Virus genome (UHGV): UHGV-0210098
Direction: 5' to 3' (one strand)
From: a virus
Length of the DNA stretch: 64,000 nt
Shown: positions 25,185-62,371 of the stretch, piece by piece
How positions within the stretch are numbered: the stretch's first letter is position 1
Layout of the letters: every line of letters starts with the position of its first letter
The notes under the pieces: model-generated
What the model was told of the DNA's origin: nothing
The model's input: the letters and a program-made list of their open reading frames with translations, nothing else
The model's database searches: none
Program-made: the position numbers and the translations under genes

Positions 25185-27164
25185 ATGGCTATTAAATTGA
25201 ATAGACTAAGTAAGGTAAAACCTGCGAGCATTGAGGAAATGGACAGTGTTGCATACGCACGGTCACAATGTGATGATATGCGCAGAGCAACAGAAGTCCT
25301 GCTCCAAGCACAGACACTATACCAAAATATGTACCGTTTTCGCCGTGAGCGAGAGCGGAACAAGCGTTATAACTACGGCGACCAATGGAGCGACATTGTG
25401 TGCGTGAACGGTAAGAAAATGACCGAGGAGCAGTACATTATGAAGCAAGGAAACATTCCGCTGAAGAATAACCTCATTCGCCGGCTTGTGCGCAATGTTA
25501 TCGGCGTATACAGGAGTCAGGCAACCGAGCCGACCTGTTACGCTCGTGACCGTGATGAGCAAAAGTTGGCCGAAACCATGTCTACTGTTCTTCAGTACAA
25601 TATGCAGTTGAACCGCATGACGGAACTCTATGCACGAACAATGGAGGAGTTTCTGATTTCCGGCATGATAGTTCATCGCAAATGGTTTGGCCGCTTGAAC
25701 GATAAGGAAGATTGTTGGACGGAGTATGTGCAACCCAACAATTTCTTTATCGACAATAATATGCGCGACTTCCGTACATGGGATTGCTCGTGTGTGGGAG
25801 AAATTCATGATGTCAGCTTTGAGGATGTATGCCATGAGTTTGCCAAATCTCCGAGCGACTACGCAAAATTAGCGGAAATATATCGTAACGCGCGAGAAAG
25901 AACGGTATTCACACAAGCATGGGAACAGTTTGGATATACCCAATCCCCCGAGATGGATTTCCTTGTTCCTCGTGACGAAAGCCGATGCAGGGTTATTGAG
26001 GTATGGAGAAAGGAAACGAAGCCCCGGTATTGGTGCCACGACTACAACAATGGTGATGTTTTCAAGATTGAACTTGAAGATTATCAAGAAATGGTTGTAG
26101 AAGAAAATGCAAACCGTCTTATGCAGGGACTGGCCGCAGGTATGGAAAAGAGCGATATTCCTCTCATTCGTGCAGAGTGGTTCATGGACTCATTTTGGTA
26201 TTACTACTACCTCACTCCGTTTGGCGACATTCTGAGCGAGGGAGAAACCCCATACGAACATAAGAGCCACCCTTACGTGTTCAAGGCATACCCATTCATT
26301 GATGGCGAAATTCATTCATTCGTCAGTGATGTAATTGACCAACAGCGTTACACCAACCGCCTCATCACACTATACGATTGGATAATGCGAGCCTCTGCCA
26401 AAGGTGTGCTGATGATACCAAGCGACTGTATTCCCAAAGGAATGTCGCCGGAGGACTTTGCCGATATGTGGAGCAGACATGACGGTGTTATTGTCTACAC
26501 CCCATCCAAGAACCACCGAGACCTGCCCCAACAGGTACAGGCAAACTCTACCAATATAGGCATCAACGAGTTACTGAACCTGCAACTGAAATTCTTTGAG
26601 GATATATCCGGCGTGAACGGTGCGCTTCAAGGAAAGCCCGGTTATGCTGGTATGTCGGCAGCACTCTACAATCAGCAGACGCAGAACGCCACCACCTCAT
26701 TGCTTGACTTGCTCGACACTTTCAGCGAGTTTGTGCGTGATGCTGCCTACAAGGATGTGAAGAACATTCAGCAGTTCTACGATAGTAAGAGAGTGTTCAA
26801 CATTGCCGGTCGTGCCGGAGCGCAGGTTGAGTATGATCCACGCAAAATTCGTGATGTTGAGTTTGACCTGTCTATTGTTCCGAGTACGGCAACACCGGCA
26901 TACAGAGCAATGGCAAATGATTTCCTAATGCAGTTGTGGCAACAGCAAGCCATATCGTTGGAGCAACTTCTACAGGCCGGAAACTTCCCGTTTGCGGACG
27001 AGTTGTTGCAGTCTATCCAATCGCAGAAAGAACAGTTGGAGGCCGGGCAGGTGCCGGAGGGCGTATCACCGCAACTCATGGCACAGGCACAGCAAGGCGC
27101 AAACATGGATGCCGTCAACCAACTTCAAGGAGCAATGAAAGGCCAACAGCCGCAGGTTGCATAG
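25185..27164 (+). CDS. Putative portal protein (659 aa)
   Basis: The size and the position between the giant internal-protein gene and the terminase/scaffold/capsid genes fit a portal. The C-terminus is Q-rich. Assignment is positional; no diagnostic motif could be verified. Confidence 0.45.
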   Translation: MAIKLNRLSKVKPASIEEMDSVAYARSQCDDMRRATEVLLQAQTLYQNMYRFRRERERNKRYNYGDQWSDIVCVNGKKMTEEQYIMKQGNIPLKNNLIRRLVRNVIGVYRSQATEPTCYARDRDEQKLAETMSTVLQYNMQLNRMTELYARTMEEFLISGMIVHRKWFGRLNDKEDCWTEYVQPNNFFIDNNMRDFRTWDCSCVGEIHDVSFEDVCHEFAKSPSDYAKLAEIYRNARERTVFTQAWEQFGYTQSPEMDFLVPRDESRCRVIEVWRKETKPRYWCHDYNNGDVFKIELEDYQEMVVEENANRLMQGLAAGMEKSDIPLIRAEWFMDSFWYYYYLTPFGDILSEGETPYEHKSHPYVFKAYPFIDGEIHSFVSDVIDQQRYTNRLITLYDWIMRASAKGVLMIPSDCIPKGMSPEDFADMWSRHDGVIVYTPSKNHRDLPQQVQANSTNIGINELLNLQLKFFEDISGVNGALQGKPGYAGMSAALYNQQTQNATTSLLDLLDTFSEFVRDAAYKDVKNIQQFYDSKRVFNIAGRAGAQVEYDPRKIRDVEFDLSIVPSTATPAYRAMANDFLMQLWQQQAISLEQLLQAGNFPFADELLQSIQSQKEQLEAGQVPEGVSPQLMAQAQQGANMDAVNQLQGAMKGQQPQVA

Positions 27165-27188: not shown

Positions 27189-27650
27189 ATGAAAGATAAC
27201 AAAACAAAGAAAACGATTTGCATCGACTTTGATGGTGTGCTCCATGATTACTCAAACGGTTTTCAAGGTAAAGATGTATTCGGCGACATGATACCGAATG
27301 CTGACGATGGCACACAGGTACTACACGAAAAAGGGTGGAAGATTATTATCTACACTACACGCCCTAAGACGGCTGCTCTCGAAAAATGGCTTAAAGACCA
27401 CAAGATTGCATACGACTACATTAACGAGAACCCCGACCAACCCGATGACTCAAAGGGTGGAAAGCTCATTGCCGACATCTATCTTGATGATAGAGGTATG
27501 ACATTCCGAGGCCGTTGGGATAAATGGCTTATTGGAGATATTGCTGCTTTCAAACCAAGTGGCAGTCCTGGTGTAAAGGACGAAATGGAGAAAGAATATA
27601 ATGTCGCCAAGAAAAGCATCATCGAACTTGCAAAGTGCGCTAAATGCTAA
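27189..27650 (+). CDS. HAD-superfamily phosphatase, 5'(3')-deoxyribonucleotidase-like (153 aa)
   Basis: HAD motif I in ICIDFDGVLHDY (DxDGV) and a C-terminal IADIYLDDR acidic motif. Phage nucleotidases of this type are common. Confidence 0.5.
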   Translation: MKDNKTKKTICIDFDGVLHDYSNGFQGKDVFGDMIPNADDGTQVLHEKGWKIIIYTTRPKTAALEKWLKDHKIAYDYINENPDQPDDSKGGKLIADIYLDDRGMTFRGRWDKWLIGDIAAFKPSGSPGVKDEMEKEYNVAKKSIIELAKCAKC

Positions 27651-29815
27651 AACGAAGCCGCCGACACTACTTTTGGGACATATTTGAGATTGCTACTGCC
27701 GCGAGTTACGACTTGCGGCAGTTCCATTTCACGGAAACAGATATGCAGACCAATGGCTCGTGTCATTAACAAGTCGTCATGTTTTCCTGTGATAGCACCG
27801 TATGCACCGTTTTGTTTCCTCTCATAGCATAAATACTCGTCAAGACATCGTCCGTCACGTTCGATATAACTTCCCTCACGGATAACTTTAACGAGGGTAG
27901 AGATAACCATTGGCTTTGTGCTGACATTAGTATGAAAGCCATAGTTGAGAGGCAACCCTTCGAGAATTGCTTCTTCGGATTGTTTTCTTGCATAGAGATT
28001 GGGATATACGTCCTTAATCTGATTTAATATGTAATGCGATTGGTCTCCGTCTACTTGACGTTCCCTATCGTGTGTCTCAAGAGTATTGCTCTCAATAACG
28101 AGTTTAGAGCAATCATAGAATGCTGCTATTTGAGCAGCTTTCCATGCCAACAAGTCCATATCAATGTGACCATACCATTGAGCCACGACAGACGGTTTTC
28201 CTCCGTCCATCATCAGCAGACGGTCGAATACGACAATTACGGACCAGTCCGCTTTATTTGAGCGTCCTCCGACATCGACAACCGTAAGGTAGCGGTTTAT
28301 TACTTCTTCAGTATCGTTAGGGTTTACCTGGTCGGGCAAGTTCCATACCCATAGCATACCTTGTGAGTCTGCCTTAAAGCGCAGGTCTCGTAATGCATCC
28401 TCTCCCTCGTCACCGTAAGCATATACATCACCTATGTAACGTGGAGTCCTACATGTGTTCCGCAACTTGTGTACATTATATTTATCGAACACACGTGCTC
28501 CCGAATTAACAAACGCCTCCACATCGTCAGACGGGAACTCTGCGGCAATTAACCCATGCTCTGTGTACTTCTTTCGTTCATTGATGTACCAATGAATAGC
28601 CTCTAATGTGGCACCAATTTGCCACAAATACCAAAGGTACTTTCCACTTTCCTCTCTATTAGATGTTACATTCTCGTTGTTCCTGTTGTTATATAAATTA
28701 GCTGCAAACTCTTCTACATTATCTATCGGCAAAGAATACTGTTCGATGTCGAACCATGAAACGAACATCGCCTCAAATTGCGATTTCTCCTCCTTTGCAT
28801 CATCGTATTCCTTTTGGAAGAAGTTACCTGTACCATTGGCCGTACTCTCATACACAATCATCGTATATGGTTTGTACAAAACTCCTGAACAAGCAGAGCG
28901 TACAATGTCCTCCGGCTTCTTTCCGTCAGTGACTTTCCATAGTCCAACCTCAGAAAGGTGTACGAGATTATAGTCTCCACCACGACAACTATCCGGGCGT
29001 TCAGCAGTACCAATTTTAATTTTGCAATTTCGTTGAGGTACACGATGAATGCTTCCCGATTTACCAACGCCAACTAATTTTGGCTCGTTCTCATTATATG
29101 TTTCTCCTATCTCATGGAGCATTTCGACAGGGTAAGCCTTAATCATACGGTCGAACATATCCTTTATCTCGTCCGAACCAGAGCCTTGATGTGCAATAAT
29201 AAGGGAGTTTAAGCCTACTTTGTGCATCAACTGCAACCACGCCATATAGATTTGTGACGTGGTAGAACCACCCCATTGACGTGCTTTTAACAAGATAAGA
29301 CGTATAGGCTTACCAGCCTTTCTCAACCGTTCTAATCTTTCCACAAACCTACGTTGTGGTCTTGTCAGTCGGAATAATACATCTTCTCCACCTCCCTTAT
29401 TCTTAATGAAAACGTATAAAGCAGCCCAAAATGCAAAGTCATATTTACAGCGTAATCGGACAAACTGCTTAATAACCTTATGCCTGTCAGCATCCCACTC
29501 ATCTTCATGTTCAAAATAATACTCCTCTGCACTGAACGATTCATCTTCTCCATATTCTTCCTGTTTAATTTGGAACAGAAATTTATCAATAGAGCCAAGT
29601 TCAATTATCGCTCGTACAAGTGGTATTTGAAGCATCTCCACAGGAAGATACTGAACAGAAATCGAAAAATCTCCTATGACTACACGCTTCCTTTCTCCAA
29701 TAGAACCTTCGCCGGTTATTGGATTAAATTTTGCATAGACTTCTGCATTTCGCCTATTATTTTCAGTTAAAATATCAGAGATTGCGATTTCCTTTGCCGT
29801 AGTCATACCACCCAT
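27647..29815 (-). CDS. terL: Terminase large subunit
   Basis: 722 aa. ATPase region LKARQWGGSTTSQIY (Walker A variant), LVHLSEVG (Walker B-like) and YESTANG. C-terminal RNaseH-like nuclease TVVDVGGRSNKADWSVIVVFD. Confidence 0.8.
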   Translation of the reverse strand: MGGMTTAKEIAISDILTENNRRNAEVYAKFNPITGEGSIGERKRVVIGDFSISVQYLPVEMLQIPLVRAIIELGSIDKFLFQIKQEEYGEDESFSAEEYYFEHEDEWDADRHKVIKQFVRLRCKYDFAFWAALYVFIKNKGGGEDVLFRLTRPQRRFVERLERLRKAGKPIRLILLKARQWGGSTTSQIYMAWLQLMHKVGLNSLIIAHQGSGSDEIKDMFDRMIKAYPVEMLHEIGETYNENEPKLVGVGKSGSIHRVPQRNCKIKIGTAERPDSCRGGDYNLVHLSEVGLWKVTDGKKPEDIVRSACSGVLYKPYTMIVYESTANGTGNFFQKEYDDAKEEKSQFEAMFVSWFDIEQYSLPIDNVEEFAANLYNNRNNENVTSNREESGKYLWYLWQIGATLEAIHWYINERKKYTEHGLIAAEFPSDDVEAFVNSGARVFDKYNVHKLRNTCRTPRYIGDVYAYGDEGEDALRDLRFKADSQGMLWVWNLPDQVNPNDTEEVINRYLTVVDVGGRSNKADWSVIVVFDRLLMMDGGKPSVVAQWYGHIDMDLLAWKAAQIAAFYDCSKLVIESNTLETHDRERQVDGDQSHYILNQIKDVYPNLYARKQSEEAILEGLPLNYGFHTNVSTKPMVISTLVKVIREGSYIERDGRCLDEYLCYERKQNGAYGAITGKHDDLLMTRAIGLHICFREMELPQVVTRGSSNLKYVPKVVSAASF

Positions 29816-33576: not shown

Positions 33577-34212
33577 ATGGTATATAACATTCACGATGTA
33601 ATGCGCGATGTCCGCGTATGCCTCGACCAAAACATGACGAGCGAACAGTTGTTGCAGACTGACGATATAGACACACTTGCCCTTGATGATATAATCAGAA
33701 GCAAGATTTTGGAAGCAGTTGTCAGAGTGCATACCAACGCTCCGACATATCTGTTGGAGCAGGGTCACAACTTCGGCGATGCCGTGTATTGGGGTGACCT
33801 TGAAAGCGGTTGGGTGTTGTTGCCGCAGGACTTCATGCGCCTAATCGTTTTTGAAATGAGCGATTGGGAGCGAGCTGTTTTCACGGCCATAAGCACCACC
33901 GACCCGGAATATGAGTTGCAGCGTCAGCGCATCAAAGCATTGCGCGGCACCGCACAGAAGCCGGTATGTGTAATCTCAGTGCGGCCAGAGGGAAGAGCGT
34001 TAGAGTTCTACTCATGCAAGAGTGAGAGCGCATACGTTCGCCGTGCGCAATATCTTCCTTACCCGAAGATAGATAAGGACGAGGGCATAGACATCTGTGA
34101 ACGCTGTTATACAGGCGTGGTGTATGCCGCAGCGTCATTAGTATTACTCACATTGGGCGAGGCCGAGAAGTCATCGGCACTCTCCGAAATATCTAAAACA
34201 GCATTACAATGA
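33577..34212 (+). CDS. Hypothetical structural protein (211 aa)
   Basis: ORF in the structural block whose stop overlaps the tail-fibre gene start by 4 nt (atga at 34209), consistent with translational coupling. Confidence 0.45.
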   Translation: MVYNIHDVMRDVRVCLDQNMTSEQLLQTDDIDTLALDDIIRSKILEAVVRVHTNAPTYLLEQGHNFGDAVYWGDLESGWVLLPQDFMRLIVFEMSDWERAVFTAISTTDPEYELQRQRIKALRGTAQKPVCVISVRPEGRALEFYSCKSESAYVRRAQYLPYPKIDKDEGIDICERCYTGVVYAAASLVLLTLGEAEKSSALSEISKTALQ

Positions 34213-37200
34213 GTTCAATTCCAACAAAACAAATAGATGGTGATGTTGCGGTTGGGCGCAATGTGTCAGCCGGAGGCGATGCCAACGTACAAGGTAATGC
34301 CCGAATAGGCCACGACTTGGTTGTTGAGGGTTGGCTTGAAGCGAAGAACATCAAAGGGGTAAACAAAGGACTGTTTGCTACCGTTGCTGCTTTGCGCGAA
34401 GCTTATCCCCAACCACATGATGGTTGGTTTGCCGGAGTGTCAGCCTCGGATAAGGACATTGCAGACCTCGGACTCACCGTCCAACAGGGAAAGGCACTGT
34501 TCAGAATGTATGTCGGCAGTGGCGGTGATTGGGTGTGCGAACCTATCGACAAACTCTATGAGATTGTAGTGGACAACGAGCAAGTAGACAACCTCAGAGA
34601 CGAATTGTCTACCCTGCGCGGCCAGCATGAAAATCTTGAAAAGCGCGTTGATGCCCACGACACCGAAATCAGCGGTATCAAGACACAGCAGACCACACTC
34701 GGAAACAGCATCAACACCAACACCGGCAACATCGCAACCCTCAAAGTAAGAGTAGACGGCCACGACACATCTATATCGAAGAACGCAGCCGCAATCAAGG
34801 CTATTACTGATAGCATTGGTGCGCCTAATGGTATTGCCCCGATAGATGAGAACGGCCATATTCCAACCCGTTTTATCCCCGGGGCAATGGATGATGTCAA
34901 AGAGTTTGACGGTTTTGTCGAAGTATCTACAATAAATGCCGCTTCATTGACAGGTGAAGTTCTTGTCATGTTCAACACCACGTCAAGGACATTTGTTGCG
35001 TGTGCCAAGAATACCATACCTCCACAGTATGCCAATAATTGGATAGGAGCAGAAAACTACGGTGACTTTTCTATCAATGGCCGTATGCCACAAGATGATA
35101 AAGTCTACGTAGACCGTTCTACCAATAAAACCTATCGTTGGAGTGGTAGCCGCATGGCTGTTATCGGCACTGACCTTGCACTTGGCGAAACCGAGAACAC
35201 CGCATATCCCGGTAACAAGGGTAAAGCAAATGCAGAAAATATAGCGTTACTCAAAAAGGCATTCTCAATTACCACGTTTGTAAACATCAACGAATTGTTT
35301 GAGAGTACCGGCAGCATGACATTTACGGATGTCGTTACGCTGCTTGACAGCGTAACAGAAGTGATTAAGCCCGGTAGCGTTGTAACATACCTCGACACGG
35401 AAAACGGTTGGAAGTCATTGCAATTTATAGGAAACGACCCCGACAACGGCATAGGTTTCGATGAAAATTGGAAAGCGTTTGGTAACGGTTCATCTGTAGG
35501 AAACTGCTACAATGTAACCGCCGCTCGACTTGCCAACGGTGATGAATTGCCGACCAATCCACCGACATACGACACAAAGCAGAGTGCCATTGAGTATGCT
35601 ATTGCTAAGGGAGCAGTCAGCATCGGTGTTCAAATCACTTTTGCAGCAAGTTCCAAAGGTTGGCGAACATTCCAATATATCGGACTTAGCGAAGATGCCG
35701 ATAGTTATTCCAACCTTGACAATTGGCTTGATGTAGCCGGTCAAAGCGCAGGAGAGGAAACTATACTCAACATCAACGAACTTTGCAAGGAACAGACAGG
35801 AAGTAGCGAATACTCTTTGCTGAGTGCTGTTGCAGCCTTGCTCAAGTTGTGTGAGAGCAAGGGTATTGACTATTTTAAGGACGGCCTTGTTATTACTTAC
35901 TGCGTTAATGCCGGTGAACACGTATGGGAAGCAAAGCAACTACTTGACAAGGCAAGTGCCGATAATTCCGAAGCATGGAAAGATTTCGGTGGTGGTGGCA
36001 ATGACCTTGAGGCAAACGATGTGCCGACCGAGGGAGGTAAAGACGCATTCAGTACCGGCGGCGCATACGAGCGCATGATAGTAGACTTCGAGGAAAGTTT
36101 CAGCGAGGACGGTAATTCCAAAACCTATCAGCCTGTAAATGCAAAGAGAAAGCCAATAGGCAGTCCCATTACCGTACCTCTCGGCGGTGGAGGAGGCAGC
36201 ACAGATGCAACCTCATTCGCAGTGCGCTTTGAGAGTCAGACAATTTACGGCGCAGCAGGAGGCAAGATAATCGGACGATTTGCAGCCCGAAGCGTTACGC
36301 GCATGGGCGAGGAAGAAGTCGTAAACAACATTACCGAAATATCAGTCAGTGATGCTAATACCGGCGTATTGCTCAAGACAGAAATTCTCACCAACGAGCG
36401 CAGTTCTGCCTCACTACAAGATTTCAAGTTCTCAGTAGACTTCACAGATTGGTTTGACGGTGCCGGGCAGCGCAGCTTCATCGTTGCCGTAAAAGACCAA
36501 GAAAGCAACGTGCGCCGTGTTGATGTAAGCGTGAACTGCGTTGATGTTACTGTTGAAATATCCAAGGCACTGAATGAATGTCGTATTTCTACCGGTGCAG
36601 GTATGACAACTCTTAATAGTTTCTACATCTTTCCGCGCAACACCCTCGGAGGAGCAGGAGGCGGTATAGATGCTATCATTGAAATTCTGTGGGATGGAGA
36701 ATGGAAGGAACTCGGCAGAGCCAACATCCAAAAGACATTCTCGCAGGACATCAGCATAAATCCTACCAACGTACTCGGCGGCGGCGAAAAAATGCAGCAT
36801 GGCTCATATTTGCTCCGCATACATGGCTATGCACCACAGGCAAAGGTTACCGGCAACTATGTCTATACCTCAATAATGTGCATAGATAGTTCTAAGTCCA
36901 CAGAGCCTATTGTGTCAATCCGATACGATGCAAATACCTATGACGAAGAACTGAATGGCACTGTTGCGCTATACGATACAGCCATATTGCAGGTAGCCGC
37001 GTACACCGCTGCAAGTATCAGTGGCAATACGCAGGTATCAGTCAAAGCCAACGGAGAAACGATACAGACATTCAATGCTGCATCTTCCTCAACCTACCAA
37101 GTAAAGTATCAAATACAGGGCTATACCAATGGCGACAACATCGAATTTGTTGCAGAAGGAACGTGGACAGAGGCCAATGGTAAGAAACACAGAGGCCAAA

Positions 37201-40200
37201 GCCACACAATCAATGTTACGGTCGATGGAAGTGCAATAGATGTGCAACTGAAAGGTGGCGCAGCTTTTGCCTACGACTTCGCACTACGAACCAATGCGGA
37301 TGTGGACAAGACCATCAAAGACAACAATGTTACGATGTCTGTAACCGGCGCAAATTGGCGTACTAACGGTTTTGTTCAGTACCTTGGGCAAAATTCTCTG
37401 CGCATTGCCGAGAACATGAAAGCCACAATCCCATACTATCCTTACTCCAAGCAGACTAACGAGAGCGCAGGAAACGCTGTGCAATTTTCCTTTGCCACTG
37501 ACAATATCAAGGATAAAGACGCCTTGCTCATGCACTGTTACGACCCTGCCACCGGCACCGGCTTCTATGTCAAAGGAAACGTGGCCGGCATATATTGCTC
37601 TAAAGGTGTAAAACATCAGCGACAGGAGCGCAAGTTCCGAAGCAAGGAGCAAATCACTATGGCAGTAGTTGTAGAACCTGCGAGCCGGGCATACGAGCGT
37701 GGTAATGAAAAATACTCCACCATTAAGATGTACCTCAACGGTGAGGAGGTCGCTTGTTTGGGTTATATACCAGGACAGAACGCAATCTCGCAGAACAAGC
37801 CCATCATGTTTGACGGTACGCAGGGCGACCTGTATCTCTACTACATCATGGCATACGAGAGTTACTATGAGTGGTCGCAAGCCTTTAACAACTATCTTGC
37901 AAAACAAACCAATGTAACTGCAATGATGGCCGAGTTTGAAAGCGAAGATGTGCTTGACACACTAAACCGTCCGAGCCTCGACAAACTCAAAGCAAAGGGT
38001 ATGCCGTATTATGTTGTGGTGGCTCCGCAGAAAGTGTTTGATGAATTTGACAGTGATACCAACACGTCTACCAAATTCACCTGCACCCTGTTCTACTTCA
38101 ACCCTCAGCACCCAGAGTTGAACTTCATGGCCACCAACGTACAGTGGCGCAGACAAGGAACTACATCGGCGAAACGACCAATTAAAAATGACCGTTTCTA
38201 TCTCAACAAGCCCGTCAATAAAGCGGACAAGATTGTTATCACGCTGCTCAATCCAAACGAGGACACCGAACTCGGACGGAAGGCCATTGCACTTGCCGCC
38301 AAGAACTATGTACTTGTTCAACCTAATGCAATCCCCGTTCAGATTATTACCGTCAAGGTAGACTTTTCAGACAGCAGCAACGCAAACGATTGCGGCGTAT
38401 GCGACATGATGAACAACACGTTTAAGGCAATGGGCAGCGCATATCAGACACCTGCCCAAAGAGCCTATGACGGAACATTCACCAAAGGCGACCTGCATAT
38501 AGAGGGATGTCAAATGGACCACTCGACCAAGAACCATCCTATTGCTGCTTTCCGTGCCACAAACGAACAACTGACAGACGCATGGTTTCATGCGAAAGGC
38601 AATTGGAAAGAGGATAAGGGAGAACAACTTGCACTCGGTTTCAAAGACACACCCGGCTATAATAAAGGCTGCTTGAACTATGGTGATTTCATAGAGTTCT
38701 TCGGTAATCGCAATGAAACACTCTCGCAAATTGAGGCACGTTTCAAGACAACAGACGGTTTAGACACAGATAGCATCTACCTGTTGAGCCAATACTGCGG
38801 TCGTGACTATCTCATCATGCGCCATAATGGTACAGCATGGCAGCGCAGTACCGGCTCAATGAAACAAGTAGGCGGGAAATGGGTAGTTACCGGCGATGTC
38901 CTTAACCCTGTTACCGGCTTTGAGTTGCTCTCTTATCAAGGTTTCTGCTGGTGGAAAGGAGTATCGAGCGTTGACGATATGATGAAGATGGAGGCCGATA
39001 AATCCTCATGGGTTCAGAAACTCGTCAATAGCGGTGATGTGTCTGCCGACACATTCCCGAAGTGGACGCAATACTTTGAATGCATGGTAGACGACGACCA
39101 ATTGCAGATTGACCTTGCATACGGTCGCAAAGTTCCATACGAACTTTACAGAATGTTGAGGTTCTGCCACGACTGCGACATGATTGCATCCGTAGAAGGT
39201 AAAGAAAACCGTTGGCAGATAATCGAGAACACCACAAAGATGGCGAATTGGAGAAACAATCTGTGGCAATACGTATCGCCGCAGAGCCTGTACGCCTATA
39301 CATTGTTCACCGATTATCTTGCAGCCACCGACCAACGCGCCAAGAATATGCAGCCTATGTGGTTTTTGGAGGACGGCCAGAGTGTTACCAACGGTGTCTA
39401 TTCTGCCGAACACGCCGTGAGAATGTATCTCAACAAGGTATATGACTGCGACACCTGTAACGGCAAGGACAATGACGGCGGTTGCACCGTAGATCCCGAA
39501 GCAGACCCCAACCGCATGACTGACGACAACTATGTCAATCCATACGCAGGTTATGGTTCAATCCTGTTCAACAATGTGGCCATCGTTCCAACTGTTTATC
39601 TTGACGCAACACACAGCGGAAGTCAGCAACTTTCACTCGGAACTGTTGCAGCCGCCATGCGCTCTGCAAAGACCAATGTGGACGGTGTGGACATGGTGCC
39701 GTTCTCCCCGGAGGGCGCACAATACTTCTTCGTTGAAAAGCGTCTGAAGTTTTGGAAGAAACTCATATCGTCCTTTGACGGCGAACGTAAGTACATCGAG
39801 AGTGTAGGCACGAGTGATGATATTTACTTCTATGCTCTGCAAGGCTTGGGACTTACAGCCCTGCCGCAGTTCATCGAACAGCGTTGGCGCATCCGTGACG
39901 GTTACTATCAGACCGGCCAATTCTTCAGTGGTGTGTTGAGTGGCCGTACATCATGTGCAAGCAGTAACGCGCGTATCCGTATCGTTGCCGCAATGACCGG
40001 CTATTTCGGTGTAGGCCATGATGCAAGCGGCCAACTTGACGAGGTAGTGTTCCTCGAAGCAGGACAGGAGCATTACTTTACAAAGTTCAGCCACACAGAG
40101 TATGCCTTGCTCTACATCTATCAAGCAGACCGCATCAAAGAGATAGACTTGAGCGAGATAAGCCTTGACAGCAGTTTCAACTTCCAAGTAATGAAACTTG

Positions 40201-42545
40201 CTGAGAAGATTATCATCGGAAGCGAAAGCAGACAGGATGTATCAATCGGTGCCGCCGTCCCTATCAGTTCTCTTCCTCTCGGGCAATTGCCGTTCCTTCG
40301 TGAACTCGACACACGCAACACAACCGTTGCGAGCATTGACGCGAGCAGTTGCCCACGAATAGAGATAATCAGAGCCGGAAATTCGCCGCTGCAAAACTGC
40401 CTTATTGCAGAAACAGCTCCTATCAGCGTGTTGGAATTGCCCGACACCATGACGGAAATTTCTCTTGTCAATCTTCCCAACCTGTCATATCCCGGCGGTC
40501 TGACTATTGCAGGATTGAGCAATATAACAAAACTCATGATTAGCGGTAGCCCGAAGATTGACGCAATGACAATGATTAAGAACATCGTTGACGAGGCCGG
40601 ACAGATTAAAAGTATCGGACTACGCGATGTGAATATCACGGCCAGCGTTGAAATCCTGCGCTCTTTGAAAGCAACCAATGCCTACGGCCTCGATGAATAC
40701 GGAAACGACATCGCGGCCGATAAGAATGTCGAAGGCGTAGGAAAACAATGCTCCGGCCTTACAGGCCGTTGGATATTGTCAGAACTGATAAAGGATGAGG
40801 ACGAAAACGGAGTAGCCGGTCTTAACAGCCTCAAAGCCTACTTCCCGGCTCTTGACCTCTACAACTCTCAGTTCTCTATCGTGAAATGTTCTGATGTGGT
40901 GGATGCACCGGGTGAGAAATGGGGAAACCTTGACAACCTGACCGGCGCACTGTTCTCAGCCGCCTATAAGCGTTCGGGACATCCATTGCGCATCTTTGAA
41001 AACACTTGGGCGTGCCGTGCAGACTACAACGCAAAGTTGCAACGCCTTGAACTACGCCGATTGAGCCGTGCCAACTTCAATTTCATGCTTGACGGCAGCG
41101 AAATTGACCTTGCAGACGTAGCCGGTGCCGGTTATGACATCATGCACTTACTTGGTCATGGTTGGTATAAAGGCGTGAGCGACTATAAGAACCAAGACAA
41201 ATACTATATATGGTCGAGCTGCGACAATGAACCTCTCTCAACGGCCAACGTGAGAAAGATATACAGCCTCGCAGACCTACTGTATTCCGATAGTCAAGGT
41301 GTATATGTAGATGCAGACACCACAAACGGCATGAATGTCGCAGAACTACTCGGACAAGGTTCTAATGTCAATGTCTACCGTGTGGATGTAGACGGTATGA
41401 AGCAAGTACGTTGGCCGGGCATGAACAATCAGACAATGGGCTGCGTGTTCACAGATGCAGACGGAAAAGTCGTTGGAGTGTTCCAAATGGCCGTAAGCAA
41501 TACGAACTTTGACTTCACAATAGGCAACTACATCTACGAGAAAGTTCCGCAGGGTGCAAAATGGTTCTACTTTACCACGTTCAAAGACCTTGACAATAGC
41601 GAAGTTCATGTTGTAGATAGTGACAGCATCGAAGCAATCGAGCCGGAATGGACGGAGATTAAAACTCCGAAAGCACTCAATGAGCAGATAGAGGACGGTT
41701 CTGTGTTCGGTACATACCCGATTACGATTGACGGCCTCGGTATGCCGCGAAGCATCAGCAGTGGACGCTCACGCAAAGGCACAGGCACATCTACCATAAA
41801 TCCTAATTGGCTTTATGATGACGATGGCAATGCTGTAGAGTTGCCGACCGGCACAATCAACTACTGCATGAAAGATTTCCAAAACCTTGCAAGGCTCAGA
41901 GGCAAGGGGTATCAACTCCAAGACTATGAGCAACACAAGGAAACATCAATCCTGTGGTGGGCTTTGAACGGACACAGCGATGAGCAAAGCATTGTCGGTC
42001 GTGGTCAGCATGACGGCCTCCTCAACCAAGCCGATAATATCGGTATGGCAGACACACAAAGTAGTAGTAACATTTGGAATTCAATACTCGGCATTAAAGG
42101 TTATGTCGGATGTGACTCAGAATGGTTAGACAACCTTGCGCTTAATGTAACCTCATTCAAAGAGTTCTTCAAAAACAAAGGCGTTGAGGTGTCGTCATTC
42201 CCTCTTGACGGAGTTGCACACATATTCAATCCTATCACAGGAGAAGAACGTACCGTGCAATGTCTGACAACCGGCGGAGGAAACTGTATCGTTCGCCTTG
42301 TGCATGGTGCCAAGTGTGATATATTACCGTCACGAACAATCGGCGACACAAGCCAATACATTGTGGCATTTTGCGCCGGTTGGTGGTACACACATTCGCG
42401 CAGCCGCGTGGTTTTGCGGTCGGGCGGCGGTTCGAGTGCGTTTAGCGGCCTCGCTTGTGCGAGTGCGAATCACGCTTGCTCGTACTCGTACGCGAGCTTC
42501 GGCGCGCGTCTGGCCTTCCGTGGGCGACTAATCGTTCTCTCGTAG
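34209..42545 (+). CDS. Giant tail fibre / receptor-binding protein (2778 aa) and DGR target, with an LRR-like region and a C-terminal variable region
   Basis: The N-terminus MSSIPTKQIDGDVAVGRNVSAGGDANVQGNARIGHDLVVEGWLEAKNIKG is a conserved phage tail-fibre N-terminal fold, followed by a coiled coil. A leucine-rich-repeat-like segment lies at about 40100-40720 (LxxLxLxxN-type repeats). The last roughly 40 codons are the DGR VR. Confidence 0.8.
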   Translation: MSSIPTKQIDGDVAVGRNVSAGGDANVQGNARIGHDLVVEGWLEAKNIKGVNKGLFATVAALREAYPQPHDGWFAGVSASDKDIADLGLTVQQGKALFRMYVGSGGDWVCEPIDKLYEIVVDNEQVDNLRDELSTLRGQHENLEKRVDAHDTEISGIKTQQTTLGNSINTNTGNIATLKVRVDGHDTSISKNAAAIKAITDSIGAPNGIAPIDENGHIPTRFIPGAMDDVKEFDGFVEVSTINAASLTGEVLVMFNTTSRTFVACAKNTIPPQYANNWIGAENYGDFSINGRMPQDDKVYVDRSTNKTYRWSGSRMAVIGTDLALGETENTAYPGNKGKANAENIALLKKAFSITTFVNINELFESTGSMTFTDVVTLLDSVTEVIKPGSVVTYLDTENGWKSLQFIGNDPDNGIGFDENWKAFGNGSSVGNCYNVTAARLANGDELPTNPPTYDTKQSAIEYAIAKGAVSIGVQITFAASSKGWRTFQYIGLSEDADSYSNLDNWLDVAGQSAGEETILNINELCKEQTGSSEYSLLSAVAALLKLCESKGIDYFKDGLVITYCVNAGEHVWEAKQLLDKASADNSEAWKDFGGGGNDLEANDVPTEGGKDAFSTGGAYERMIVDFEESFSEDGNSKTYQPVNAKRKPIGSPITVPLGGGGGSTDATSFAVRFESQTIYGAAGGKIIGRFAARSVTRMGEEEVVNNITEISVSDANTGVLLKTEILTNERSSASLQDFKFSVDFTDWFDGAGQRSFIVAVKDQESNVRRVDVSVNCVDVTVEISKALNECRISTGAGMTTLNSFYIFPRNTLGGAGGGIDAIIEILWDGEWKELGRANIQKTFSQDISINPTNVLGGGEKMQHGSYLLRIHGYAPQAKVTGNYVYTSIMCIDSSKSTEPIVSIRYDANTYDEELNGTVALYDTAILQVAAYTAASISGNTQVSVKANGETIQTFNAASSSTYQVKYQIQGYTNGDNIEFVAEGTWTEANGKKHRGQSHTINVTVDGSAIDVQLKGGAAFAYDFALRTNADVDKTIKDNNVTMSVTGANWRTNGFVQYLGQNSLRIAENMKATIPYYPYSKQTNESAGNAVQFSFATDNIKDKDALLMHCYDPATGTGFYVKGNVAGIYCSKGVKHQRQERKFRSKEQITMAVVVEPASRAYERGNEKYSTIKMYLNGEEVACLGYIPGQNAISQNKPIMFDGTQGDLYLYYIMAYESYYEWSQAFNNYLAKQTNVTAMMAEFESEDVLDTLNRPSLDKLKAKGMPYYVVVAPQKVFDEFDSDTNTSTKFTCTLFYFNPQHPELNFMATNVQWRRQGTTSAKRPIKNDRFYLNKPVNKADKIVITLLNPNEDTELGRKAIALAAKNYVLVQPNAIPVQIITVKVDFSDSSNANDCGVCDMMNNTFKAMGSAYQTPAQRAYDGTFTKGDLHIEGCQMDHSTKNHPIAAFRATNEQLTDAWFHAKGNWKEDKGEQLALGFKDTPGYNKGCLNYGDFIEFFGNRNETLSQIEARFKTTDGLDTDSIYLLSQYCGRDYLIMRHNGTAWQRSTGSMKQVGGKWVVTGDVLNPVTGFELLSYQGFCWWKGVSSVDDMMKMEADKSSWVQKLVNSGDVSADTFPKWTQYFECMVDDDQLQIDLAYGRKVPYELYRMLRFCHDCDMIASVEGKENRWQIIENTTKMANWRNNLWQYVSPQSLYAYTLFTDYLAATDQRAKNMQPMWFLEDGQSVTNGVYSAEHAVRMYLNKVYDCDTCNGKDNDGGCTVDPEADPNRMTDDNYVNPYAGYGSILFNNVAIVPTVYLDATHSGSQQLSLGTVAAAMRSAKTNVDGVDMVPFSPEGAQYFFVEKRLKFWKKLISSFDGERKYIESVGTSDDIYFYALQGLGLTALPQFIEQRWRIRDGYYQTGQFFSGVLSGRTSCASSNARIRIVAAMTGYFGVGHDASGQLDEVVFLEAGQEHYFTKFSHTEYALLYIYQADRIKEIDLSEISLDSSFNFQVMKLAEKIIIGSESRQDVSIGAAVPISSLPLGQLPFLRELDTRNTTVASIDASSCPRIEIIRAGNSPLQNCLIAETAPISVLELPDTMTEISLVNLPNLSYPGGLTIAGLSNITKLMISGSPKIDAMTMIKNIVDEAGQIKSIGLRDVNITASVEILRSLKATNAYGLDEYGNDIAADKNVEGVGKQCSGLTGRWILSELIKDEDENGVAGLNSLKAYFPALDLYNSQFSIVKCSDVVDAPGEKWGNLDNLTGALFSAAYKRSGHPLRIFENTWACRADYNAKLQRLELRRLSRANFNFMLDGSEIDLADVAGAGYDIMHLLGHGWYKGVSDYKNQDKYYIWSSCDNEPLSTANVRKIYSLADLLYSDSQGVYVDADTTNGMNVAELLGQGSNVNVYRVDVDGMKQVRWPGMNNQTMGCVFTDADGKVVGVFQMAVSNTNFDFTIGNYIYEKVPQGAKWFYFTTFKDLDNSEVHVVDSDSIEAIEPEWTEIKTPKALNEQIEDGSVFGTYPITIDGLGMPRSISSGRSRKGTGTSTINPNWLYDDDGNAVELPTGTINYCMKDFQNLARLRGKGYQLQDYEQHKETSILWWALNGHSDEQSIVGRGQHDGLLNQADNIGMADTQSSSNIWNSILGIKGYVGCDSEWLDNLALNVTSFKEFFKNKGVEVSSFPLDGVAHIFNPITGEERTVQCLTTGGGNCIVRLVHGAKCDILPSRTIGDTSQYIVAFCAGWWYTHSRSRVVLRSGGGSSAFSGLACASANHACSYSYASFGARLAFRGRLIVLS
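42399..42515 (+). other. DGR variable repeat (VR) at the 3' end of the tail-fibre gene
   Basis: A 117 nt alignment to the TR shows about 21 mismatches, every one at a TR adenine (for example TR aacaat to VR ggcggt, aatgcgaat to agtgcgttt). A 25 nt stretch at the start is identical (cagccgcgtggttttgcggtcgggc). Confidence 0.9.
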
Positions 42546-42576
42546 CACGACTGCTCGCCACTCGTCCTTTTCGTTT

Positions 42577-42612
42577 GGTGCAGAGCCGTGGGTTTATCCC
42601 CGGCTGCTGCAC
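42577..42612 (+). other. GC-rich hairpin/cruciform downstream of the VR (GGTGCAG...CTGCACC)
   Basis: A 7 bp outer stem at 42577-42583 / 42606-42612 with inner partial pairing. It lies 32 nt past the tail-fibre stop. DGRs commonly carry a hairpin downstream of the VR/IMH. Confidence 0.4.
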
Positions 42613-42621
42613 CTTATTTTT

Positions 42622-42640
42622 CTCGCGAAGCGAGTTTTTT
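42622..42640 (+). terminator. Rho-independent terminator-like hairpin CTCGCgaaGCGAG followed by T6
   Basis: Read directly: perfect 5 bp stem, 3 nt loop, TTTTTT. Confidence 0.5.
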
Positions 42641-42724
42641 ATATTTGTTTCATACGGCAATATGCTGATTTTTCATGATATTTTAGTAATTTTGCAGCGG
42701 ATTTACTCCAAGGCGGAAAACCCT

Positions 42725-42841
42725 CACAGCCGCGTGGTTTTGCGGTCGGGCAACAATTCGAATGCGAATAGCGGCCTCGCTTATGCGAATGCGAATAACG
42801 CTTGCTCGAACTCGAACACGAACTACGGCGCGCGTCTGAAC
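42725..42841 (+). other. DGR template repeat (TR), AAC/AAT-rich
   Basis: Non-coding copy of the VR. In the VR frame it would read NNSNANSGLAYANANNACSNSNTNYGARL, the classic Asn-codon-rich template. Every TR/VR difference maps to a TR adenine. Confidence 0.9.
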
Positions 42842-43046
42842 TTACTAAGGTTAAAATCGTGTGACCCTGCACGGCAACGAGATTGCCAAAGCACTCCTCG
42901 AAGGGTTTGAGCCTCGGCAACAGCAATTCTTTTCCAATCTTGAAAACATTGGAGAGTTTTGGAAAGCCGAAAAATGACGATAACCTTAATGTGGGGTGTC
43001 GCTACGGCGACCCCCACGGGACCGGAAGGCCATTAAACAATTGACA

Positions 43047-44486
43047 ATGGACGCAGTAACTGCCCATAACATCAAATATGATTTGATACCGCAGGAATGC
43101 TCCAATCTTCCTGCGGCGTTGAAACGTGCAGGTTTCCCAATCAGCAACATATTAGACGAGATAACCTCGGACGAGAATTTGTCTGAGGGTTTTGATTATG
43201 TAATCAGTCATTTGGAAACCGCACAACAACGCGAAAAGTATTACTCTAAACTTGACCCTGCAAAAGGGCAACGCGACAAGCGACAACTCCTTGCCCGACT
43301 AAAAAAAGAACTCCAAGACGGTACATTTAGAATACGCCCGGAGAACATCAGAGAAATGATTGTCGATGATGGCCCAAAGGTGCGGATTGTTCAAGCTCCG
43401 AGAGTATATCACCGTATCGGATGCCATGTGATAATGGTAGTCGTGGAGAAGTATGTTAATCCCACTCTCATCACGAACACAGCCGCAAGTATCAAAGGCC
43501 GTGGTATGCACTGGCTATTTCATCGCATAGTAGATGATTACAATGCCGTGCCGGAGTTGATGCAGGATTATTATCAGAACGACATACAAGGCTATTACGA
43601 CAATATCGAGCAAGAGGGAATGAAATCCGTTATAAGGCTGTATATTGCAGACCTTGTTGTGTTGGGCTTCCTTGATAACTTCATCACTTTAATGCCGAGA
43701 GGACTGTCAAAAGGCTTGCGGTCAAGTCAATGTTTCGCCAACCTCTATTTGTCGCCGGTTGACCATGTGATGTGCTGCCATGTTCCTAAATATATAGCAG
43801 AGGACGGCGAGGTTAGGTATCTTTACCAAAGATATATGGACGATGCGGCCATGTGGGGAGCAGAGAAAAGGCAACTATGGAAACTGCGCGACATATACCA
43901 TTCGGAAGTTGCCAAATTGGGGTTGACCGTAAAGAATACCGAAGCGATAAGACCGATAACCGAGGGGATAGATTACCTCGGTTTCGTTTTTTATGGTACT
44001 CATTCAAGACTGAGAAAGCGTACAAAGAAAAAGGCCGCTCGTCATTTGTCGGAGGTAAAATCACGCAAACGGCGGCAAGAACTTATCGGCTCATTCAAGG
44101 GCATGGCCTGTCATGCCGATTGCAAGCATTTGTATTATAAACTAACACATAAATATATGAAGAAATTCGGAGAGTTAGGCATAGCCTATAAGCCGGAGGA
44201 CGGTAAGAAGCGTTTTCCCGGTAAGGTAGTACCTATCCGCAGTATCGCGAACAGACCTATCGAGATACACGATTATGAAGCAGACCTCACCACGGCACAC
44301 GGAGAGGGACGCTACCTTGTCAGCTTCAGAAACGTGGACGATGGCATATTCAATAAGTTCTTCACTGCAAGTAAGGAAATGCAGAATATCCTTGACAAAA
44401 TCAGCGACTTGGAGGACGGATTTCCGTTTGAAACCACAATAGTCATGGACTACTATGACGGAAAGACAATACCCAAGTTCACATGA
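43047..44486 (+). CDS. DGR reverse transcriptase
   Basis: RT motifs are present: LSKGLRSSQCFANLYLSPVDH (motifs 3/4 region), YQRYMDDAAMWG (YxDD catalytic motif 5) and GIDYLGFVFYG (motif 7). It lies immediately downstream of the TR. The ORF track begins at a GTG at 42996; the ATG at 43047 is preferred. Confidence 0.85.
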   Translation: MDAVTAHNIKYDLIPQECSNLPAALKRAGFPISNILDEITSDENLSEGFDYVISHLETAQQREKYYSKLDPAKGQRDKRQLLARLKKELQDGTFRIRPENIREMIVDDGPKVRIVQAPRVYHRIGCHVIMVVVEKYVNPTLITNTAASIKGRGMHWLFHRIVDDYNAVPELMQDYYQNDIQGYYDNIEQEGMKSVIRLYIADLVVLGFLDNFITLMPRGLSKGLRSSQCFANLYLSPVDHVMCCHVPKYIAEDGEVRYLYQRYMDDAAMWGAEKRQLWKLRDIYHSEVAKLGLTVKNTEAIRPITEGIDYLGFVFYGTHSRLRKRTKKKAARHLSEVKSRKRRQELIGSFKGMACHADCKHLYYKLTHKYMKKFGELGIAYKPEDGKKRFPGKVVPIRSIANRPIEIHDYEADLTTAHGEGRYLVSFRNVDDGIFNKFFTASKEMQNILDKISDLEDGFPFETTIVMDYYDGKTIPKFT

Positions 44487-44539
44487 TAGTCAAAAGATAA
44501 AGAAGCGGTAACGCATATAGGTAGTAACTTTGCCGTACT

Positions 44540-45013
44540 ATGAACAAGGTATATGGCACATCAGTACGGCAGGACGGCTTACAACAGGTAGGCCGCAGGA
44601 CTTTTACGCTCTTTTACGGACTATACACCGATGAGCGCGGCGGCACTTATGAATATCGCCACATCTTCGACCATAAACCCACATGGGAAGAAGTTAAGGC
44701 CGTGTTAGTTGAGGCCATCAATGAGCATACACATGAGACTATCATCAATGGCTTTATATGGAACGGACTACGTATATGGCTCTCTGACGAAAACCAACGC
44801 AACTTTATGATGATAGAGAAACTCACAAACGAGTCTTATCCTCTTAAAGTCAAAATCAACGAGGACGCAGACGGCCAGCCAATCTATTACACCTTTGTGA
44901 GCGAAGAAGAGTTTGCCGCTTTCAGCAAACTTGGTTCACAGCACGTTATTGACACATGGGCTGCAGGTTGGAAAGAAAAGGACAACCTCGACCCAAAGAC
45001 ATTCGGATGTTAG
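44540..45013 (+). CDS. Hypothetical protein (157 aa) in a single-gene cassette flanked by 15 bp direct repeats
   Basis: Clean ORF with its own downstream terminator. TCAAAAGATAAAGA(A/G) occurs at 44490-44504 and 45076-45090 on either side. Confidence 0.5.
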   Translation: MNKVYGTSVRQDGLQQVGRRTFTLFYGLYTDERGGTYEYRHIFDHKPTWEEVKAVLVEAINEHTHETIINGFIWNGLRIWLSDENQRNFMMIEKLTNESYPLKVKINEDADGQPIYYTFVSEEEFAAFSKLGSQHVIDTWAAGWKEKDNLDPKTFGC

Positions 45014-45040
45014 ATTAGACCACATATATACATGAAAAAG

Positions 45041-45070
45041 AACGCTCGACCGTGAGGCCGGGCGTTTTTT
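45041..45070 (+). terminator. Terminator-like imperfect GC stem (AACGC...GCGTT) followed by T6
   Basis: aacgctcgaccgtgaggccgggcgtttttt, read directly. The stem is imperfect. Confidence 0.35.
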
Positions 45071-45145
45071 GTAACTCAAAAGATAAAGAGAAGCAACGAC
45101 AAGTACAGGCTACCTTTGCATCAAACTCAAAAATTTATATACAAT

Positions 45146-45895: not shown

Positions 45896-46472
45896 CAACG
45901 GCCACGGCGAGGACACGCCCGGGAAATGCAGCCCCGACAAGCGGCTGAAAGAATACCGCTATTGCCGTGAGATAGCACAGCGCGTCAGCAGAGAGTTGTC
46001 GCTCCGTGGTATAGACGCATTACTCCTTACGCCGGAAACCACCGACACACCACTCAAAGAACGTGTGCGTAAAGCCAACGCATGGGCGCGCAAACTCGGT
46101 TCAAAGAATGTGGTGCTTGTGTCGATACACAACAATGCCGCCGGCTCAGATGGCCAATGGTATACGGCCTCCGGCTTCTCTGTATTCATCAGCAAGAACG
46201 CATCGGCCAACTCCAAACGCCTGGCACAAATCTTCACAGAGAACGCCACGGCAATGGGACTTATGGGCAACCGCAGTGTTCCTGCCGAAAAGTATTGGGT
46301 TCAATCGCTTGCCATGACACGCGACACTATTTGCCCGGCAGTGCTCACAGAGAACCTTTTCCAAGACAATGAGGAGGAGGTGAAATTTCTGCTTTCGGAG
46401 GATGGAAAGAAAGCCATTACAAACTTGCACGTTAATTCAATCATTCAATACATCAACAGTATTAAGTCATGA
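45864..46472 (+). CDS. N-acetylmuramoyl-L-alanine amidase (Amidase_3 family) endolysin
   Basis: KVLIDNGHGEDTPG, VSIHNNAA and TENLFQDN are the conserved Amidase_3 Zn-ligand and catalytic regions. The start was taken at the ATG at 45864 (MTMGKIKV). Confidence 0.8.
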   Translation: MTMGKIKVLIDNGHGEDTPGKCSPDKRLKEYRYCREIAQRVSRELSLRGIDALLLTPETTDTPLKERVRKANAWARKLGSKNVVLVSIHNNAAGSDGQWYTASGFSVFISKNASANSKRLAQIFTENATAMGLMGNRSVPAEKYWVQSLAMTRDTICPAVLTENLFQDNEEEVKFLLSEDGKKAITNLHVNSIIQYINSIKS

Positions 46473-46714
46473 ACAGAGAAGAAGAAATTGTTGCTAACAA
46501 GCAACTGAGAAAGGACATTGACGAGATTATCCAAAGAGTTAAGGAATTGCCTGCTTCGCGTGAGCGTAGTCTTTCCATCACCAAACTACAAGAGGGCGTT
46601 ATGTGGCTTGGTATGGATTTGAAACGACTTAACAGCGACAATCCCTATCCTTCAAGTAAAGACCCCTCTACAGGTTCAAAGATTGAACCAACTGCAGACG
46701 GTCTCAAACTCTAA
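46469..46714 (+). CDS. Hypothetical small protein (81 aa)
   Basis: ORF overlapping the amidase stop by 4 nt. It is helical and charged. Confidence 0.35.
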   Translation: MNREEEIVANKQLRKDIDEIIQRVKELPASRERSLSITKLQEGVMWLGMDLKRLNSDNPYPSSKDPSTGSKIEPTADGLKL

Positions 46715-62159: not shown

Positions 62160-62294
62160 GATTGATGATGTTAAATTGTTAAACTTCTGCGGATTGCCAT
62201 GATTGAAAATGGAGGCCACGCTTTGGTCGGCTGTTACCTCGCTGTCTGCGCAGCCTCCGTGGTTATCAATCATGTAGCAACTACCGCTACATTG

Positions 62295-62365: not shown

Positions 62366-62371
62366 GAGCCA

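Follow-up and report, generated by a model that had tools for sequence, protein, structure and literature searches.

A Hankyphage-type diversity-generating retroelement at the 3' end of a giant gene in a temperate phage of Bacteroidales

Overview

The window analysed here, a stretch of 64,000 nucleotides from the virus genome UHGV-0210098, very probably carries a functional Hankyphage-type diversity-generating retroelement (DGR), in a temperate Bacteroidales phage of ~64 kb that encodes an integrase. The DGR is real, it is intact in this genome, and it has recently been active in the lineage; by homology, it belongs to the type already described in Hankyphage and in BS-TP4 and is not a new kind. 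It comprises a variable repeat (VR) at the 3' end of a gene of 2778 aa, a template repeat (TR), a spacer RNA, and a reverse transcriptase (RT), all of which lie, like the other elements of the locus described below, on the plus strand. Five direct observations carry this reading, namely the anatomy of the repeats, the type of the RT, the spacer RNA, the homology to known DGRs, and the hypervariability of the VR at positions that are adenines in the TR. An earlier note on this DNA had seen in the locus a TR and an RT that introduce variation into the 2778-aa gene at its 3' end, and this interpretation is borne out by mismatches restricted to adenines, by a DGR-type RT with its spacer RNA, and by a hypervariable VR accompanied by an invariant TR.

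The variable and template repeats

The VR (42401-42517) and the non-coding TR (42727-42843) are direct repeats of 117 nt whose starts are 326 nt apart, as determined by a repeat search and scripted comparison. Compared base by base, they differ at 17 positions (18 if the ambiguous position 42400/42726 is counted), and all 17 fall on TR adenines, within a VR whose diversified core extends from 42426 to 42499. With 27 adenines among the 117 TR positions, the hypergeometric probability of such a distribution is 7e-14; the other 10 of the 27 TR adenines are unchanged in the VR. The earlier note had placed the pair at 42399-42515 and 42725-42841, with about 21 differences, all at TR adenines. The length of 117 nt and the restriction to adenines both stand, while the true pair lies 2 nt rightward and the number of differences is lower.

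The position of the adenines relative to the reading frame is equally constrained. All 17 mismatches lie at codon positions 1 or 2 of the open reading frame (ORF) at 34209-42545, as do all 27 TR adenines in the VR frame, a frame with 11 AAY codons. The VR encodes the peptide SRVVLRSGGGSSAFSGLACASANHACSYSYASFGARLA, where the TR would encode SRVVLRSGNNSNANSGLAYANANNACSNSNTNYGARLN, and ends 28 nt from the stop codon of the ORF. Two of the mismatches, G at 42513 and C at 42514 (AA in the TR), are constant across the VRs of all relatives. They probably mark the 3' boundary between VR and TR, comparable to the distinction between the initiation of mutagenic homing (IMH) sequence and IMH*, and not mutagenesis; 15 genuine adenine substitutions are therefore left. 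No second VR or further copy of the repeat was found within the 64-kb window.

That this pair arose by chance, or by a simple duplication of part of a gene without any retroelement, deserves practically no credence. Beyond the general fact that repeats occur, nothing speaks for it, and it is already refuted by the data: a probability of ~7e-14 that all mismatches would fall on adenines, a DGR-type RT that adjoins the repeats, the presence of an RNA of the Rfam family RT-3, and the recurrence of adenine-restricted variation across 11 genomes.

Variation of the repeats among related genomes

Related contigs were retrieved by pattern scans and by exact-protein look-up. Those designated L013 to L022 share 97.6-98.9% identity with the window, apart from L013, for which the value is 88%; L003 and L021 are one and the same IMG/VR contig of 64.5 kb, L004 and L007 are further relatives, and L005, L006, L008, L009, and L010 are ~79% identical. 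Of 14 related contigs, most have exactly the TR of the window, and a few have a TR with 1-2 nt changed. By contrast, the 11 ungapped VRs obtained from near-identical metagenomic contigs are all distinct. When each of these 11 VRs is compared with the TR of its own contig, 123 of the 128 substitutions fall on adenines, and variation affects 24 of 25 adenine positions versus 6 of 87 non-adenine positions.

This variation is sharply confined to the repeat. The VR of L014 differs from that of the window at 17 of its 117 nt, versus a single difference in the flanking 2 kb, and L003 shows 20 differences in the VR versus 5 in the other 5.2 kb of the region 38400-43600. For L014, L015, and L022, 15-17 differences in the VR compare with 1-5 in the ±1 kb flanks. 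Since all 11 VRs differ at TR adenines with an essentially invariant TR, mutagenic homing has been recent in this lineage. The earlier note had proposed sequencing the VR in phage populations as a check; carried out on public assemblies, this check reveals adenine-specific variation next to a near-invariant TR.

Two individual VRs can be mentioned separately. In L017, a 1-nt insertion in the VR (at window position ~42485) shifts the frame, and the target ORF is called as 2900 aa; the insertion may be an erroneous product of homing or a consensus artefact. In P0020, a metagenomic relative of the C-terminus of the target, the VR reads NNSNANSGLAYANANNASSNSNTNYGARLAFRG, essentially the undiversified TR-encoded sequence, which suggests a VR either freshly reset or never diversified.

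The reverse transcriptase

The RT gene (43047-44486) begins at an ATG that is conserved in relatives and remains open to its end. The earlier note had located an RT with a YMDD box at precisely this place, and the intact ORF of 479 aa indeed contains YMDD, as well as the motif KGLRSSQ (GxxxSQ). The motif 4 typical of group II intron and retron RTs is QGxxxSP, whereas that of DGR RTs is GxxxSQ. In agreement with a DGR-type enzyme, the protein matches phrog_1423, annotated as 'reverse transcriptase' (E 9e-78), and its best relative in the PDB is 8ub7, a 328-aa RT chain that we take to be the bRT of phage BPP-1, with which both the length and the alignment agree. This match (E 2e-14) covers aa 34-370 only; the YMDD boxes line up, and KGLRSSQCFANLY (GxxxSQ) stands opposite IGSLTSQLFANVY. 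Group II and retron RTs gave E values of at least 0.005 in the PDB search. The bRT of BPP-1 (NC_005357) also matches the window directly, at 43146-44156 (tblastn E 1e-19, 24.7% identity).

The RT carries a C-terminal extension of ~110 aa (aa ~371-479) that is absent from bRT. Residues 371-473 match a separate PHROG, phrog_19665, and the RTs of crAss-like phages align to aa 32-370 only of the window RT, i.e. without the extension. The gene is under strong purifying selection, with a ratio of non-synonymous to synonymous substitution rates (dN/dS) of 0.04-0.05 against the ~79%-identical relatives and with 15 synonymous and no non-synonymous differences from L003. No exact copy of the window RT protein was found in the assembly index.

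Non-coding elements of the locus

The spacer that separates the TR from the RT contains a full-length match to the Rfam family RF03068 (RT-3 RNA) at 42855-43025, with 51 bits in cmscan against a gathering score of 40.5 (E 2.8e-11). An RT-3 RNA occupies the equivalent place in Hankyphage p00 (146.6 bits), in BS-TP4 (74.5 bits), and in every close relative, and compensatory changes were seen at 13 of the 32 predicted pairs among five sequences. The lower score of the window is explained by an insertion of ~23 nt in a variable stem (42925-42950), relative to the 79%-identical relatives. The RT-1 to RT-19 motifs were described by Weinberg et al. 2017 as motifs near RT genes; RT-10 was located in the spacer between TR and RT of BPP-1, and a role of further RT motifs in other DGRs was put forward as a speculation (PMC5737381). 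The present locus is a case of RT-3 serving a DGR.

A candidate promoter for the transcript of TR, spacer, and RT lies 32 nt upstream of the TR, where the sequence TAATTTTG (42687-42694) fits TAnnTTTG, the Bacteroides -7 promoter consensus. The block GTAATTTTGC (42686-42695) is kept in relatives in which the surrounding intergenic DNA diverges. A scan for sigma-70 promoters was discarded as uninformative for Bacteroidales.

Two further elements are found at and beyond the end of the VR. Comparison of the VR and TR ends in the window and in relatives defines an IMH-like region (42500-42535), made up of the GC-rich CGGCGCGCGTCTG common to VR and TR and then of the VR-specific GCCTTCCGTGGGCGACTAATCG, unlike its TR counterpart; by analogy with BPP-1, this region would have an IMH-like function. 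A 37-nt hairpin followed by a T-run (42577-42613; DNA fold z = -3.9) is located 32 nt past the stop codon of the target and 60 nt from the end of the VR. It resembles a terminator, and in the ~79%-identical relatives its stem is kept and its loop is variable (a GAAA loop in L008). This hairpin could be an intrinsic terminator, a DGR target-recognition hairpin, or both. A second, small terminator-like hairpin is present at 42622-42634.

The target protein

The target gene (34209-42545) encodes a putative tail or receptor-binding protein of 2778 aa. It matches phrog_14959, of unknown function, over its full length (E = 0), and PHROGs annotated as 'minor tail protein' weakly (E 5e-4 and 8e-4). 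A coiled-coil segment is found at residues ~115-205, and the gene follows the portal and capsid-like genes and precedes those for holin and amidase. Homologues have been labelled 'putative tail fiber' or 'tail-related' in the literature (PMC12135933, PMC12694917). Gene order, coiled coil, weak PHROG matches, and these labels together suggest a tail fibre or receptor-binding protein. The earlier note had called the fibre unusually large, which does not hold: the homologous targets of Hankyphage and BS-TP4 have 2245 and 2645 aa, respectively, and giant targets are normal for this class.

The target might instead be another virion or surface protein, such as an adhesin for mucus or glycans or an ejected or internal protein, whose diversification would not serve host range. 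This alternative is rather unlikely. In its favour, the protein has no significant homology to any characterized fibre or receptor-binding protein, the 'minor tail' PHROG matches (E ~5e-4) being weak, and tail tube or tape-measure genes were not recognized beside it in the window. For the homologous protein of Hankyphage, Benler et al. 2018 left the function of the target open and suggested mucus adherence via a C-type lectin (PMC6199706). However, the gene stands at the end of the structural module, past the portal and putative capsid genes and ahead of the lysis genes, its product has an N-terminal coiled coil, both later papers treat homologues as putative tail proteins (PMC12135933, PMC12694917), and the target in the BPP-1 paradigm is a tail protein. 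A tail fibre or receptor-binding protein is the preferred reading.

Two regions of this protein can be distinguished. The first is a leucine-rich repeat (LRR)-like block encoded at 40098-40722, where the Pfam family LRR_4 matches below its gathering score (E 0.012-0.053, the best match having 16 bits versus a cut-off of 27). Equally weak matches recur at the homologous position in Hankyphage (E 0.0035, and 0.009 for LRR_EndoS) and in gp14 of BS-TP4 (E 0.093), all of them sub-threshold, which makes an LRR-like nature plausible but unproven. As a separate observation, the Hankyphage target contains, within residues 729-872 and 1190-1292, a Laminin_G_3/ConA-like lectin domain (E 8e-9) and a faint CotH-kinase match (E 0.45), the latter aligning with TDYLAATDQRAKNM...YDCDTCNGKDNDGG of the window target (residues ~1674-1790, nt ~39230-39580).

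The second region is the VR-bearing C-terminal domain, formed by the last 219 aa (41886-42542), which probably adopts the C-type-lectin fold of DGR targets. A profile search gathered 352 relatives of this domain, and those that are named are all from Bacteroidales. Searches of the PDB with the single sequence and with profiles of 30 and 91 sequences returned noise only, and no lectin, FGE, or DUF1566 match was obtained in Pfam for the domain or for any of 30 family members.

Evidence against an active element

Several points weigh against the reading of a functional DGR that diversifies a lectin-like receptor-binding tip. The VRs compared above come from metagenome assemblies and represent population consensus sequences. 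The Pfam family RVT_1 matches the RT only below its gathering score (E 0.0023). No homologue of the accessory protein Avd was found, the best tblastn match of BPP-1 Avd to the six-frame translation of the window having an E value of 1.4. The tail-fibre and receptor-binding role of the target is one that we infer. An AlphaFold2 (AF2) model of its last 330 aa was unusable, with a predicted local distance difference test (pLDDT) value of 44, and the AF2 model of the last 219 aa, built with 91 sequences, reached a pLDDT of 64.8 and a predicted template modelling score (pTM) of 0.67, with pLDDT below 50 across the VR; a Foldseek comparison of this 219-aa model with the PDB gave nothing significant. 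Finally, the RT is damaged in four related contigs, L004, L007, L021, and L020.

The damage takes different forms. A single nucleotide at 44020, outside any homopolymer run, is missing from both L004 and L007, which frameshifts the RT, and L007 has three further homopolymer indels. In L021 (the L003 contig), the RT is frameshifted by a 1-nt deletion near 44204. In L020, a deletion of ~1.5 kb (window positions 42940-44449) removes the RT and leaves VR, TR, and the downstream DUF4376 gene in place. These lesions could reflect real loss of the DGR or assembly errors; because they affect four related contigs, the element appears not to be maintained everywhere. The earlier note had held that its reading would be undermined by a lack of VR variability combined with inactivating RT changes in orthologues. 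RT damage is indeed found in the four contigs, but VR variability is plainly present and the RT of the window is intact.

A more general alternative is that the DGR is a fossil, whose signature records past activity and which in this genome has fallen silent through loss of an accessory or silencing of its expression. The absence of Avd from the window and the RT frameshifts or deletion in the four contigs are in line with such decay, as is the strain dependence of the activity level in Hankyphage itself (PMC12135933). Nevertheless, this alternative is highly improbable. The window RT is full length, none of its catalytic motifs is missing, and purifying selection on it is strong, while the TR, the RT-3 RNA, the promoter-like box, and the hairpin are conserved. 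Moreover, genomes that are only ~1% different overall all have different VRs, and VR turnover is thus much above the background mutation rate. The Hankyphage annotation, as read here, also lacks Avd, yet DGR activity was measured in Hankyphage lysogens (PMC12135933). A functional DGR, recently active in the lineage, is the reading retained here.

Absence of Avd and the DUF4376 neighbour

Avd is required for cDNA synthesis in BPP-1, and it is common, although not universal, in DGRs. Since it is needed there and none is found here, the mechanism must differ from that of BPP-1 as to Avd. The earlier note had described the DGR of the window as complete, which is accurate for VR, TR, spacer RNA, and RT and does not extend to Avd. 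The small ORFs near the locus likewise had no match to four-helix-bundle (Avd-type) families of Pfam or NCBIfam.

Immediately downstream of the RT, the gene at 44540-45013 encodes a DUF4376 protein of 157 aa, which matches phrog_19239 (E 5e-25) and, below threshold, Pfam DUF4376. This gene occurs in 25 records of the phage collection, all of which also carry a Hankyphage-type RT, and it directly adjoins the RT wherever the annotation shows the neighbour. The ORF was considered as a possible Avd and rejected: it has no sequence similarity to Avd, and its product is acidic, with an isoelectric point of 5.2 versus 9.55 for Avd. The DUF4376 protein might act as an accessory factor specific to this class, or it might be associated with the fibre.

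A tentative proposal, to which we give somewhat less than even weight, is that the class formed by Hankyphage, BS-TP4, and the window works without Avd, whose role would be taken by the ~110-aa extension of the RT, by the DUF4376 protein, or by both, together with the RT-3 RNA. If true, this Avd-less class would represent a second, mechanistically distinct architecture of the reverse-transcription machinery of DGRs.

Phage context

In essence, the window represents a temperate phage of Bacteroidales, ~64 kb in length. It encodes a tyrosine-type integrase (118-1605), a portal protein (25185-27164), and, on the minus strand, a large terminase (27647-29815). The lysis genes (holin and amidase) are located downstream of the DGR, and the replication genes are on the minus strand. 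Among the related contigs, those of 62-66 kb have the appearance of complete genomes and those of 368 and 741 kb that of integrated prophages; the named relatives come from Bacteroides acidifaciens and a Bacteroidales metagenome-assembled genome. The phage lineage appears widespread, since 116 blocks of metagenome contigs are listed in the index for its DUF4376 protein.

Three other features of these genomes can be noted. Just upstream of the portal gene, an ORF on the plus strand (4770-25124) encodes a polyvalent protein of 6784 aa, very large even for the polyvalent-protein class, with ddrB-ParB, PBECR1 nuclease, InPase, SNF2/Helicase_C, and RadC-JAB domains. In the lysis-proximal region of near-identical relatives, an 81-aa ORF (5930-6175 in L014) matches the Pfam family Acb2_Tad1_hairpin, an anti-CBASS/anti-Thoeris sponge family; this match was seen on the relatives, and the ORF corresponds to window positions ~46469-46714 on the plus strand. 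Finally, ARAGORN called a tRNA-Gln(ttg) at 62294-62365 on the minus strand, in or overlapping the 5' part of a 387-aa RecT-like ORF (61209-62372), so that either the start of this ORF is over-extended or the tRNA call is spurious.

Proposed mechanism and significance

In the course of events proposed below, we infer the promoter, how priming occurs, what the IMH-like region and the hairpin do, where in the virion the target is located, and its receptor-binding role. A transcript that probably begins at the Bacteroides-type promoter shortly before the TR would carry the TR, the RT-3 spacer RNA, and the RT mRNA. The RT would copy the TR with misincorporation opposite template adenines, and priming would probably occur from the spacer RNA, as it does in BPP-1. 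The resulting cDNA would replace the VR at the 3' end of the target gene, with the direction set by the VR-specific 3' sequence and possibly also by the conserved downstream hairpin. Since the TR adenines occupy only codon positions 1 and 2 (11 AAY codons), about 14 residues on the C-type-lectin-like C-terminal domain would be randomized without stop codons, and ~1e14 protein variants could be generated. Presumably, a tail protein of the virion would thereby change in its specificity for a ligand or receptor.

The element leaves the knowledge of DGRs in principle unchanged, and contributes a naturally active case, well documented, to the Hankyphage-type DGRs that occur in Bacteroidales phages of the human gut. 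It also comes with a natural allele series, in which the RT is intact, frameshifted, or deleted and one VR has a 1-nt insertion. This series could be used for studying the maintenance and loss of DGRs and an Avd-independent mechanism. Beyond what the earlier note had described, the analysis brings in the RT-3 spacer RNA, the lack of Avd, the RT extension and its DUF4376 companion, the two boundary mismatches, and the alleles with a damaged RT.

Comparison with known systems

The prototype of DGRs, the mtd-avd-TR-brt system of BPP-1, shares with the window the A-to-N signature and the presence of the VR in a gene for a tail protein (a putative one in the window), at its 3' end, as well as the succession of the TR, a structured spacer RNA, and an RT with SQ and YMDD motifs. 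In both systems, the VR and TR have a common GC-rich 3' end and then diverge, and a hairpin is located past the VR. A number of differences can be noted. BPP-1 has Avd between the VR and the TR, whereas the window has none; its bRT, of 328 aa, is devoid of the ~110-aa extension; its Mtd target has 381 aa compared to 2778 aa, with no sequence similarity between the two; and its spacer RNA belongs to the RT-10 family instead of RT-3 (PMC5737381). For the C-terminal domain of the target, the DGR variable proteins TaqVP (5vf4) and AvpA (5ioo), which have a C-type-lectin fold, were taken as comparators.

The closest cultured relatives of the window are BS-TP4 (PQ571277) and BKO1-TP3 (PQ571269), two temperate, DGR-bearing phages of 64-65 kb whose DGRs, with targets of ~2000 aa, were reported in Gut Microbes in 2025 (PMC12694917). 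A nucleotide search of the phage collection with positions 41500-45100 found no match to any record. At the protein level, the RTs of both are 48-50% identical to that of the window, the DUF4376 proteins are 52-53% identical, and gp14 of BS-TP4 is 49% identical to the window target over ~2300 aa. The gene order around the DGR of BS-TP4 is that of the window, with a capsid-like gene, two small ORFs, the giant target, the DGR, the lysis genes, and a structural gene of ~900 aa on the opposite strand. It differs in that the interval from VR to TR has gained a RelE/XRE toxin-antitoxin pair (11010-11670), which brings their spacing to 1012 nt compared to 326 nt in the window.

The DGR of Hankyphage (Bacteroides phage p00, BK010646), described by Benler et al. 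2018 (PMC6199706) and serving as prototype for this type of cassette, has the same organization as that of the window: a giant target with a VR of 116-117 nt at its extreme 3' end, a short non-coding gap, and the TR, followed by an RT-3 RNA, an RT with a C-terminal extension, and a DUF4376 ORF. No Avd homologue is recognized by sequence in either. The two RTs are 41% identical over 97% of their length, and the targets are homologous (25% identity, E 4e-52) over their C-terminal ~1100 aa, which take in the LRR-like block and the VR domain ending in ...G(A/S)RLAFRG (GARLAFRG in the window). Differences concern the targets (2778 versus 2245 aa, with the N-terminal ~950 aa unaligned), a 64-aa ORF that is annotated between VR and TR in p00 and is missing from the window, and the RT-3 RNA, which scores 51 bits in the window versus 147 in Hankyphage and has a 23-nt insertion in a variable stem. 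A further difference lies in the backbones. Hankyphage is a 43-kb Mu-like transposable siphovirus, whereas the window has an integrase, the 6784-aa polyvalent protein, and a BS-TP4-like gene order, and no recognizable tape-measure gene beside the target. Judged by its sequence, the locus fits the Hankyphage-type DGR cassette, with the RT extension, the RT-3 RNA, a homologous giant target, and the downstream DUF4376 gene, in a phage that is not Hankyphage itself, and one DGR module, made up of the C-terminal region of the target, the TR, the RT-3 RNA, the RT, and the DUF4376 gene, is found on two unrelated phage backbones.

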